Source of the DNA: Escherichia coli
GTDB lineage: Bacteria > Pseudomonadota > Gammaproteobacteria > Enterobacterales > Enterobacteriaceae
Length of the DNA stretch: 8,688 nt
Assembly (NCBI RefSeq): GCF_003334335.1
Contig: NZ_QOWQ01000068.1
Direction: 5' to 3' (one strand)
Positions 1 through 1,818 of the stretch are shown piece by piece. Position 1 is the first letter of the stretch, and each line of letters opens with the position of its first letter. Position numbers and translations under genes: made by a program. The notes beneath the pieces are model-generated. The model was not told the origin of the DNA and did not search any database. It was given only the letters and a program-made list of their open reading frames with translations.

Positions 1-320
1 GCAAATCCGAAGGCCAGACGGGCACACTGAATCATGGCTTTATGCCGTAACATCCGTTTGGGATGCGACTGCCACGGCCCCGTAATTTCTCTGCCTTCGC
101 GGGTTTTGAATGGTTCGCGGCGGCATTCATCCATCCACTCGGTAACGCAGATCGGATGATTACCGGTTCGCTACCAGGGAAGAACGGGAAGGAAAGGTGA
201 GCACGAATCTGATTTTCAAGGAGTGTCGCCAGAGTGCCGCGATGAAGCGGGTGTTGGCATTTTATCGCGGCAATTTTCAATAGACTATGTACATAAAAAT
301 ATCATTTTTTTAATACATGT

Positions 321-512
321 CTAATTATTGGACGAAATTGGTTTTTGCTTTGGTTTAGTTAGCCTAGCAATCAAGCCAGAGGCAATAATGATGATCCAAG
401 CAATTTGATGCAATGCTACTCCAATATAAGAACCTTTATAGATAATAAAGGCATAGATCGCTAGAAACGAAATAAATATCCATAACGAAAGTTGATAAAT
501 TTTGGCGCGCAT
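321..512 (-). CDS. Small hydrophobic protein with two predicted transmembrane helices and a basic C-terminus, unknown function
   Basis: ORF track 321..527 begins at a TTG; the first ATG is at 512 (63 aa from MRAKIYQLSLW...). Two hydrophobic stretches (LSLWIFISFLAIYAFIIY and IGVALHQIAWIIIIASGLIARL) are followed by TKPKQKPISSNN. No clear Shine-Dalgarno; lies in the AT-rich island, divergent from the lipoprotein operon. Confidence 0.35.
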   Translation of the reverse strand: MRAKIYQLSLWIFISFLAIYAFIIYKGSYIGVALHQIAWIIIIASGLIARLTKPKQKPISSNN

Positions 513-527
513 ATTTAATCCAATCAA

Positions 528-768
528 TCAGAAAGACGAGTAATCATAGAGGTACTATCACCCGGGTAACTATTGCTATTATGAACGGATAGGATAGAGG
601 CTTCAATAACATATGCATCAAGTATGATGGAATATGTAGGTGAAAATGACTTGTGTCAAATTTGTGGAAATGAGTACCATGTTTCTCTGAAATTGATGTC
701 GTTAATGGCTAGTGATAGTGAACTTTTTTACTTTATAATTCCTTTGGTTATAACAATAAGGTAAATTT
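528..768. promoter_or_regulatory. AT-rich divergent intergenic region, probable promoter(s) for the lipoprotein operon and/or the small membrane ORF
   Basis: About 240 bp of very AT-rich non-coding DNA between divergent ORFs. Shine-Dalgarno-like AAGGT at 758-762, 6 nt before the ATG at 769. Several sigma70-like hexamers are possible but none can be singled out by eye. Confidence 0.3.
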
Positions 769-1329
769 ATGAAGAAGATAATATTATTAGCCATGATTAT
801 TGGTTCTTTAACAGGTTGCGCTAGTGTGCCACCATTGAATTTTTCAACACCTAACGTGGGAGTTAGCCAGAAAAAAATAGATGCTGAAATTAAGTCATTA
901 ACGGTATCACTTGCTCGTCCAGATGAGCAGAAAGGGGATATCACTGCTGGTATGGAGGCTATAACTCCAATTTGGCGTGAATCTTTGCAGGAAGCACTCG
1001 ACCGAATGACTATTTTTCGTGATAGTTCACCAAATACGGTTAGCTTAAATGTTAAAGTGTTGGCTCTTGACGTTCCTGCTTTTGGTGTTTCAATGACAAC
1101 TAAAGCAATTGCAAGGTATGAAATAATCAACCGTGCGAATGGTGATATTATATATACGCAGGATATTGAGTCTACCGGTACTGTTCCAGCCAGTTACGCA
1201 TTCTACGGTATTGTTCGAGCACGCGAATCTGTTAATCGCGCGGTGCAAAACAACATAACGCAGTTCTTGCAAGCATTAGAAAGTGTTGATCTTTCTCGTC
1301 CAATGTTTCCTGTTAGGGTAGCTAAATGA
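769..1329 (+). CDS. Lipoprotein of unknown family (186 aa)
   Basis: N-terminal signal peptide MKKIILLAMIIGSLTG followed by Cys17 (lipobox LTGC); Ala at +2 rather than Asp suggests outer-membrane sorting. Good RBS. Stop TGA (1327-1329) overlaps the next gene's ATG (1326-1328). AT-rich codon usage. Confidence 0.8.
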   Translation: MKKIILLAMIIGSLTGCASVPPLNFSTPNVGVSQKKIDAEIKSLTVSLARPDEQKGDITAGMEAITPIWRESLQEALDRMTIFRDSSPNTVSLNVKVLALDVPAFGVSMTTKAIARYEIINRANGDIIYTQDIESTGTVPASYAFYGIVRARESVNRAVQNNITQFLQALESVDLSRPMFPVRVAK

Positions 1330-1778
1330 AGCGATTATTCGTAATTGCTCCACTCTTAGTGTTGGTTGGATGCGCACAAAATATATCGCCAAATAGTTAT
1401 TCTGTTGGCTCTGTGGGCATGGTTAATCGAACTATCGCTGGTACAGTTATTAGTGCTAGGGGGGTTGATATCAGTGGGACTTCCGCGTTAGGCGGGACTG
1501 CTGGGGCTGCCGTGGGGGCAACCGCTGGTTCTGCGCTTGGTGGGGGAGTTCGTTCTAATATCGTTGGTGCCGTTGGTGGTGCAGTCATTGGTGGTATTGC
1601 CGGGGCAGCAATCGAATCTTCAGCAACAAAACAAACAGGCATGGAATATGTTGTCGAAACTGAGAATGGGAATTTAATGACCATTGTTCAAGGCAAAGAT
1701 CCGTTATTTACTCAAGGAAGTAAGGTCCTTGTTTTATACGGAAACCCTTCTCGCATAATAACAGACCCGCGTCACTAA
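1326..1778 (+). CDS. SlyB/Pcp-family glycine-zipper outer-membrane lipoprotein (150 aa)
   Basis: Lipobox LVGC with Cys16. Central Gly/Ala-rich zipper (GGTAGAAVGATAGSALGGG...VGAVGGAVIGGIAGAAI). N- and C-terminal segments (AGTVISARGVDISG; KQTGMEYVVETENGNLMTIVQG...SKVLVL) resemble, from memory, E. coli SlyB (YGTIVNVRPVQIQG; KTQGVELEIRKDDGNTIMVVQK...QRVVLA). AGGG Shine-Dalgarno 7 nt upstream; ATGA overlap with the upstream gene. Confidence 0.85.
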   Translation: MKRLFVIAPLLVLVGCAQNISPNSYSVGSVGMVNRTIAGTVISARGVDISGTSALGGTAGAAVGATAGSALGGGVRSNIVGAVGGAVIGGIAGAAIESSATKQTGMEYVVETENGNLMTIVQGKDPLFTQGSKVLVLYGNPSRIITDPRH

Positions 1779-1818
1779 CATACCTTTTGATTTTGTAAAA
1801 TCAATTCGTAATAATAAA

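Follow-up and report, generated by a model that had tools for sequence, protein, structure and literature searches.

Morons, a concept of Hendrix and Juhala, are transcription-unit-sized inserts that are present or absent at one position of a lambdoid genome, as with bor and lom of lambda, gp15 of HK97 and emrE-ybcK-ybcL-ybcM of DLP12. Capture of a bacterial cassette is their classic origin, and the accepted source of lambdoid mosaicism is homologous recombination in flanking sequence. Among the mobile lipoproteins, the phage proteins Llp of T5 and Cor of phi80 and N15 block receptors, and TraT of the F plasmid acts in surface exclusion and serum resistance. SlyB is a PhoPQ-regulated outer-membrane lipoprotein of Escherichia coli and Salmonella. 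Under envelope stress it is reported to oligomerise into rings around lipid nanodomains and outer-membrane proteins (bioRxiv 10.64898/2025.12.22.696046). Here we analysed a stretch of 8,688 nt from E. coli (contig NZ_QOWQ01000068.1 of assembly GCF_003334335.1; the window), which takes in a defective lambdoid prophage from its early-right region to its lysis region. Between the ren and ybcN genes of this prophage lies a module of low guanine-plus-cytosine (GC) content with two overlapping lipoprotein genes, the open reading frames ORF1 and ORF2.

With a probability of roughly 0.75, we read this module as moron-type cargo in the slot between ren and ylcH/ybcN, made up of an AT-rich leader and a lipoprotein operon from bacterial chromosomes, and serving envelope-modifying lysogenic conversion. 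The module, its parts and its borders in the window are as follows.

161 to 283, plus strand: 3' fragment of ren, placed by annotation, BLAST end points, three-way junction alignment and population end points
235 to 272, plus strand: GC-rich hairpin with a 12-nt stem, an inverted repeat (-22.8 kcal/mol, z = -3.1) that straddles the left breakpoint
259 to 1784, plus strand: accessory cargo module of 1,526 nt, bounded by homology breakpoints; 39.7% GC
321 to 512, minus strand: orphan ORF 'orfM', from the ORF list; 63 aa from ATG, hydrophobic, two predicted membrane spans
528 to 768, no strand: non-coding AT-rich spacer of 33% GC with sigma-70-like hexamers on both strands
769 to 1329, plus strand: ORF1, a 186-aa lipoprotein with lipobox LTGC and Cys17; unnamed conserved family with a predicted LptE/PqiC/PelC-like alpha/beta fold
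1326 to 1778, plus strand: ORF2, a 150-aa lipoprotein with Cys16; full-length SlyB homologue with a beta domain and a glycine-zipper helical hairpin
1785 to 1968, plus strand: conserved backbone 3' of the module; homology to DLP12, 82, 4A7 and PhiR26_1 begins at 1785
1871 to 1972, plus strand: ylcH, 33 aa, whose stop overlaps the GTG of ybcN
1969 to 2424, plus strand: ybcN, in the position of NinB, with a GTG start; right-hand backbone gene

An accessory insert with defined breakpoints

We surveyed 5,426 complete E. coli genomes for the module and its two flanks. The ren flank was present in 2,575 genomes and the ylcH/ybcN flank in 2,971, but the module occurred in only 280 (about 5% of the 5,426), and it is therefore not conserved backbone. 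All 280 carriers showed at least 99% identity across the module and had it between ren and ylcH/ybcN, and the AT-rich leader was found in exactly the same 280 genomes and in no other. Many clinical isolates were among the carriers, as was enteroaggregative E. coli (EAEC) 042. Of 50,697 phage records, only that of PhiR30_1 contained the module; this isolated phage has E. coli C as its listed host and shows the order P-ren-module-NinB. The preliminary description of this DNA had proposed a horizontally acquired cassette swapped into the prophage, and the proposal was borne out by the 280 carriers set against the 2,575 and 2,971 genomes with a flank, by the coinciding breakpoints and by other cargo in the same slot. 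Conservation of the segment in most related prophages, which that description had named as the contrary outcome, was not what the survey showed. The module is an accessory insert with defined breakpoints.

The occupants of the slot between ren and ybcN in other lambdoid elements are listed below.

K-12 DLP12: emrE-ylcJ-ybcK-ybcL-ybcM
Phage 4A7: a recombinase and an esterase
PhiR26_1: the anti-phage gene PD-lambda-1, a Rha protein and hypothetical genes
Lambda: only about 95 nt, no cargo

PD-lambda-1 lies upstream of ybcN in PhiR26_1, at 1-2964 of the locus compared, and the slot thus also serves as a site for a defence gene.

Breakpoints were located by BLAST against lambda, K-12 DLP12 and phage PhiR30_1. 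On the left, homology ended at 258 for lambda ren and at 256 for renD of K-12 DLP12; on the right, homology to DLP12 resumed at 1785, with the nin region of DLP12 and phage 82. The end points in module-free E. coli genomes were closely similar, with left-probe matches ending at 252-265 (mostly 256-259) and right-probe matches starting at 1777-1787 (mostly 1785 or 1786, with minorities at 1799 and 1811). A three-way alignment showed that the three ren genes part within their last ~25 nt, each with its own C-terminus. In the window, ren is conserved from 161 to 258, and 259-283 (about 25 nt, eight codons and TAG) is specific to module-bearing elements. Alignment to related prophages had been suggested as a means to find exact breakpoints and flanking repeats; it located the breakpoints (about 259 and 1784/1785) but no direct or inverted repeats beside them. 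The junctions likewise had no target-site duplications or terminal inverted repeats, and only short two-copy matches of the kind that arise by chance were seen there. The ORF list and family searches gave no transposase or recombinase gene in the module.

The hairpin at 235-272 has its left arm in conserved ren and its right arm in module-specific sequence, and is followed by AAUUUUCAA. The tR2 hairpin of lambda is absent from the window in the three-way alignment with lambda, and the hairpin at 235-272 might be a terminator that substitutes for tR2. On the right, the backbone carries a promoter-like TTGATT-17-AATAAT at 1787-1815 and then an inverted repeat at 1819-1847 that can form a hairpin with an 11-12-bp stem. 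At the corresponding positions of phage 82, record X92588 lists a putative -35, a putative -10 and a 'possible regulator-binding site'. The cargo breakpoint coincides exactly with the backbone -35 (TTGATT) in most genomes. ybcN had been described as following the module immediately; its GTG start at 1969 does lie behind a GGAGG, but 184 nt of conserved backbone including the 33-codon ylcH stand between the two.

Base composition marked the two edges of the module unequally. The GC content fell from 55% at 1-258 to about 31% at 271-810, and 100-nt windows showed 54-58% at 1-250, 44% at 201-300 and 28% at 251-350. Penalised-likelihood segmentation by dynamic programming placed the change point at about 270 at both penalties that yielded any segmentation; a simple binary GC split gave a single split at 7479 and missed the island. 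The left edge is thus real and sharp, as the preliminary description had it, but the breakpoint is at about 259, inside the last ~25 nt of ren, and not at 300. The right edge was gradual, with 38% GC at 1751-1850, then 44%, 48% and 51%, and 56% at 1951-2050. On total GC alone the segmentation put the end of the AT-rich part at about 810 or about 1155 instead of 1800, and the right end of the module went unmarked. The interior was uneven, with 32% GC at 259-768, 40.5% in ORF1 and 47.2% in ORF2, where the Gly and Ala codons of the glycine zipper account for a spike of 60-64% at 1451-1600 (64% at 1451-1550).

The GC content of third codon positions (GC3) followed the gene content more closely. 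It was 29.9% in ORF1 and 33.8% in ORF2, compared with 61.2% in ybcN, 57.0% in rusA and 45-49% in ninE, ybcO, ylcG and quuD. Mean total GC was 55.4% in the left flank, 39.7% in the module, 48.3% in the nin genes and 43.5% in the whole window, and further AT-rich islands occurred at 5101-5500 (28%) and 7186-8688 (38.5%). The surrounding backbone is therefore heterogeneous, and the module mean of 39.7% is not extreme for this window. An AT-rich extent to about 1800-1970 had been proposed by eye. The region of GC recovery roughly fits it and GC3 supports it, but the interior is not uniformly AT-rich and the backbone is patchy. The sliding-window profile did show the expected deviation from the left flank, and the module genes, with GC3 of 30-34% against 45-61% in the nin genes, stood apart from their neighbours.

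A conserved pair of lipoprotein genes

Across Proteobacteria, ORF1 and ORF2 are conserved as a gene pair that stands by itself. In the window the ATG of ORF2 overlaps the TGA of ORF1 (ATGA, 1326-1329), and from this arrangement the operon is apparently translationally coupled. We surveyed the pair with one genome per species and found ORF1 homologues in 51 species, which were Gamma-, Beta- and Alphaproteobacteria together with one Desulfobulbaceae and one Chthoniobacteraceae genome (both metagenome-assembled). An ORF2 homologue lay immediately downstream on the same strand at 46 of the 51 loci, and the 4-nt overlap of stop and start was kept at 33 of the 40 loci where a lipobox-bearing ORF2 start could be assigned. 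No other neighbour was conserved across genera at the 51 loci, beyond shadow ORFs that overlap both genes. The surroundings were chromosomal and not phage-like, with toxin-antitoxin and transposase genes in Bordetella, umuDC in Klebsiella oxytoca, and type VI secretion system (T6SS) and NERD genes in Luteimonas. A tblastn search of plasmids returned no close ORF1 homologue, only weak partial matches of 26-28% identity. Since the pair is chromosomal across species and conserved as a unit, the E. coli module is best explained as a bacterial two-gene cassette captured by a lambdoid phage. Our literature search found no paper on the gene pair, nor any on the ren-ybcN slot as a named hotspot.

At the Photorhabdus loci that have no ORF2, ORF1 is followed downstream (about 4960-6050) by arrays of a short repeated unit. 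The unit translates as '...VHCRTGSLE...' on one strand and as 'FLSCLYGSE...' on the other, and the arrays are probably a repetitive DNA element.

ORF2 was related to SlyB by sequence, by profile and by predicted structure. A phmmer search matched it to SlyB in PDB entries 7ojf and 7ojg (E = 1.3e-14, residues 2-149 against 3-155), and a profile of 29 ORF2 homologues matched the 7ojf chain with E = 1.2e-15. The Pfam family Glycine zipper 2TM (PF05433) was recognised in ORF2 at E = 3e-4, and the protein also matched phrog_13877. The AlphaFold 2 (AF2) model of ORF2 consists of a beta hairpin, a helical hairpin and a C-terminal beta domain, and SlyB was its sole significant PDB match (Foldseek E = 1e-8, TM score 0.56-0.60). 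The N-terminus reads MKRLFVIAPLLVLVGC-AQN. The cysteine is invariant in the 29 homologues, and position +2 after it is A, T, V or Q.

ORF1 belongs to a large family. We collected 512 homologues across Gamma-, Beta- and Alphaproteobacteria, many of them 60-70% identical. Pfam gave no domain in ORF1, NCBIfam gave matches at the level of the signal peptide only, and the PDB sequence search returned nothing significant; among the 120 listed homologues there was no domain-level Pfam family, and one showed only the lipoprotein signal motif PF08139. The AF2 model of ORF1 is an alpha/beta sandwich (predicted local distance difference test score, pLDDT, 84.6; predicted template modelling score, pTM, 0.78). 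Its nearest matches outside the family in AFDB were an 'ABC-type transport auxiliary lipoprotein', DUF4410 and LptE, and the predicted structure shows an LptE/PelC/PqiC-like lipoprotein fold.

Two existing names for ORF1 were considered, and neither was supported. The name 'UDP-N-acetylglucosamine acyltransferase' (LpxA) came with no hexapeptide or acyltransferase match in Pfam, and the protein instead has a signal peptide and the alpha/beta sandwich fold; this label is widespread for the family in NCBI, UniProt and AFDB and is a propagated misannotation. The name 'YajG family', given by the Prokaryotic Genome Annotation Pipeline (PGAP), corresponded to an NCBIfam PRK11627 score of 11.4 bits against a cut-off of 242, in the signal peptide region only. 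An hhalign comparison of the ORF1 family with E. coli YajG gave 84% probability with the signal peptide included, and YajG was not among the top 50 AFDB structural matches of ORF1; a distant relationship between the two may exist.

Upstream of the pair, the leader of about 0.5 kb (259-768, 32% GC) holds the antisense orphan ORF and promoter-like hexamers. orfM is annotated in PhiR30_1 and not by PGAP. Its only homologues were near-identical E. coli copies, and family searches including PADLOC found none, so that its status as a real gene is uncertain. A sigma-70-like site lies ahead of ORF1 on the plus strand at 712-739 (GTGATA-16-TATAAT), and two on the minus strand lie ahead of orfM at 659-631 and 606-578. 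An Rfam scan of 1-2400 at E <= 1 gave no match, and hence no known RNA element in the leader. DNA homology to the pair of Klebsiella oxytoca was confined to 769-1759 (71% identity), which argues for a separate origin of the leader.

Spread, function and competing explanations

The sequence around the module carries a record of its movement. The feature in question is as follows.

159 to 2291, plus strand: block of 100% identity between the window, PhiR30_1 and two prophages at the argU site, one strain having a single difference

The identity breaks off sharply at 2292, within ybcN and some 500 nt beyond the right end of the module. Beyond this point, pairwise alignments with the same relatives gave 97.4-98.5% identity in the nin genes and about 90% in the porin region, and 2292 looks like a recombination junction. 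The module was housed in the degraded prophage beside ybhC (the type seen in the window) and also in apparently intact lambdoid prophages with intD at tRNA-Arg (argU), in strains 2012C-4431 and SK6988. Backbones that have otherwise diverged share some 2.1 kb of identical sequence, which indicates that the block was exchanged recently through homologous recombination in the flanks. The comparison points to a module that shuttles among lambdoid backbones with about 100 nt of left and about 500 nt of right flank, by recombination and not by transposition.

The proposed action of the pair begins with transcription of the operon, which would take place in the lysogen from a promoter of its own or by read-through from pR on induction. 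Lipidation of both products would follow, and their destination would be the outer membrane. Aspartate at position +2 after the lipid-modified cysteine causes inner-membrane retention by the established sorting rule; ORF1 and ORF2 both have lipoboxes and neither has Asp at +2, and an outer-membrane destination is predicted for both for this reason. By analogy with SlyB, ORF2 may then oligomerise into rings, with the glycine-zipper hairpins inserted around lipid patches or outer-membrane proteins, and ORF1 would serve it as a dedicated partner. Through these steps the prophage would bring about lysogenic conversion of the envelope, either as greater outer-membrane robustness or as altered surface properties, and bor and the porin gene elsewhere in this prophage are comparable in kind. 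An envelope-modifying conversion gene pair is the most likely role of ORF1 and ORF2.

Two other accounts of how the segment came to be here were weighed, and both appear very improbable. Ordinary heterogeneity of the backbone, such as an ancestral stretch since lost from lambda and DLP12, would need no acquired cassette. It would suit a window that is compositionally patchy throughout and a module GC only 4 points under the window mean, and gain versus loss is not provable from presence or absence alone. Yet the module occurs in only about 10% of the genomes with the same flanks, and its identity of at least 99% compares with typically 90-95% across genomes for the flanks themselves. Unrelated cargo occupies the slot in other phages, homologues are chromosomal across Proteobacteria and yet appear in 1 of 50,697 phage records, and the GC3 of the module is far under that of ybcN and rusA and lower than in any nin gene. 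Insertion by a transposable element, an integron-like cassette or a site-specific recombinase would have precedents close by, in the ybcK-type serine recombinase gene that sits in the same slot of K-12 DLP12 and 4A7 and in the IS3 element that interrupts renD in K-12. For the module itself this is scarcely credible, with no transposase or recombinase gene inside it and no terminal inverted or flanking direct repeats around it; moreover, it replaces the 3' end of ren where an insertion would interrupt an otherwise intact sequence, and it travels with identical flanking backbone.

A further alternative accepts the same module and changes what it does: the pair would mask or cage outer-membrane receptors and so block phage adsorption, DNA entry or conjugation, in the manner of Cor, Llp and TraT. 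The presence of PD-lambda-1, a named anti-phage gene, in the same slot of PhiR26_1 fits this, as do the reports that SlyB rings enclose BamA and OmpF/C/A (PDB 7ojf is a SlyB13-BamA complex); TraT was the second-ranked Foldseek match of ORF2, at a non-significant E = 0.17. We nevertheless regard exclusion as unlikely. PADLOC-DB v2 gave no match for the four module ORFs at E <= 1, a search that does not cover an undescribed exclusion function, and the Cor matches in PHROGs cover the signal peptide alone (E = 0.1-0.25). The similarities to TraT are weak, and in most species the pair is chromosomal, with no phage or defence context and no conserved neighbours, which favours a general envelope role over exclusion. 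A bolder form of the idea takes ORF1 and ORF2 as an undescribed two-component lipoprotein machine, a 'split TraT' in which a SlyB-like ring works with a dedicated partner of LptE/PqiC fold. Bacteria across Proteobacteria would retain this machine as a stand-alone cassette, and a lambdoid phage would have captured it for the caging or masking of outer-membrane receptors, with superinfection or surface exclusion or serum resistance as the gain for its lysogen. This we consider decidedly doubtful.

Several observations weigh against the reading of the module as a captured, envelope-modifying moron. ORF1 stood without ORF2 at 5 of the 51 species loci, where the second gene was truly absent, and ORF1 can thus exist alone. 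The closest named relative, from Klebsiella oxytoca, has 83% protein and 71% DNA identity and 50% GC compared with 40%. The confidence of the ORF2 model is moderate (pLDDT 74, pTM 0.50). Among the 280 carriers, many have the module at a similar map position and are probably clonal relatives; independent acquisitions are therefore fewer than the count suggests. The promoter-like sites numbered 6 against a shuffled expectation of 5.2 and were thus not in excess, no terminator was found between the ORF2 stop (1778) and the backbone, to which the nearest hairpin (1819-1847) belongs, and our literature search found no expression or phenotype data for ORF1 or ORF2.

An AT-rich cassette at this slot is textbook lambdoid mosaicism, and K-12 DLP12 already varies there, so the cassette adds little alone. 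Its cargo is what deserves recording, as a tightly conserved overlapping pair that is misnamed or unnamed in databases, ORF2 being listed as 'hypothetical'. ORF2 is a clear paralogue of SlyB, and glycine-zipper lipoproteins of the SlyB type have recently been recognised as organisers of outer-membrane stress. With only two genes, a mobile, phage-borne version whose partner looks obligate is a compact system in which to probe ring specificity. As about 5% of complete E. coli genomes carry the pair, any influence on envelope robustness, serum survival or phage susceptibility would be of practical relevance.

Prophage setting and comparison with known systems

The whole window (8,688 nt) is matched at 99.94% identity by a locus next to ybhC in E. 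coli JNQH498, whose RefSeq annotation supplied the gene order. The order and the outermost left feature are as follows.

1 to 161, minus strand: truncated recT/bet-type recombinase fragment in the JNQH498 RefSeq annotation; GC-rich left flank, outside the module
RefSeq gene order, JNQH498 locus: truncated recT-truncated ren, two lipoprotein genes, ylcH, ybcN, ninE, ybcO, rusA, ylcG, quuD
RefSeq gene order continued after quuD: porin gene (other strand), essD, rrrD, rzpD, bor, ybcV, ybcW

The recT fragment was 97-98% identical to bet/recT of Stx phages. This minus-strand fragment is joined straight to the 3' third of the plus-strand ren at about 159-161, a junction which implies that the whole immunity and replication region, including O and P, is deleted. 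Without this region the prophage would not be inducible by itself.

Accessory DNA was also seen further to the right. The stretch 4031-5500 holds a minus-strand porin gene (nmpC/ompD-like) and its upstream region at 5101-5500 (28% GC), and resembles a second moron, placed between Q and the lysis genes. The porin segment was the most divergent among otherwise close prophages (about 90% identity); its ORF is unbroken in the window, whereas the annotation of the near-identical copy in JNQH498 gives a pseudogene interrupted by an internal stop. A proline-rich lipoprotein ORF of 60 aa at 6630-6812, nested in another frame within rzpD and unlisted in the JNQH498 annotation, looks like an outer-membrane spanin of the Rz1/RzoD type. 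The stretch 6903-8688, with bor (a minus-strand lipoprotein gene, GC3 36%) and the ybcV-ybcW region (38.5% GC; ybcV GC3 31%), is a third AT-rich accessory region. Strain 2012C-4431 has an iss allele in place of bor, and its ybcV-ybcW region is missing.

Compared with known morons, the module at 259-1784 has the same form, a transcription-unit-sized insert that is present or absent at one position. It shares with them a deviant base composition and envelope proteins of bacterial origin, and it is dispensable for the phage, lambda having nothing in the slot. It differs from them by its previously undescribed gene pair and the antisense orphan ORF in its leader, and by having only promoter-like hexamers (not enriched) and no 3' terminator of its own that we could find.

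LptE, PelC, PqiC (DUF330) and CsgG are lipoproteins like ORF1, and several of them form rings or plug beta-barrels. The identity of ORF1 to its structural matches is 7-15%, with no family match at the level of sequence, and no lptD, pel, pqi or csg gene lies beside ORF1, for which the SlyB-like ORF2 is the sole conserved partner. TraT, Cor and Llp resemble the predicted products of the pair in that they are outer-membrane lipoproteins which mobile elements encode and which change the cell surface in the element's favour. TraT acts as one protein, compared with two genes here, and the glycine-rich segment of its Pfam family matched ORF2 weakly (E = 1.2); neither sequence nor profile comparison gave a significant match. 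The module lipoproteins are far larger than Cor and Llp, which match them in the signal peptides only.

SlyB is the closest counterpart of ORF2. The two proteins align end to end (150 residues in ORF2 and 155 in SlyB) and share the lipobox, the glycine-zipper helical hairpin and the C-terminal beta domain, with about 27% identity over the structural alignment. slyB is not known to sit in an operon with a gene of the ORF1 type. ORF2, carried by phage in E. coli, nearly always comes second in its operon, after a lipoprotein gene of the ORF1 family, with overlapping stop and start codons.

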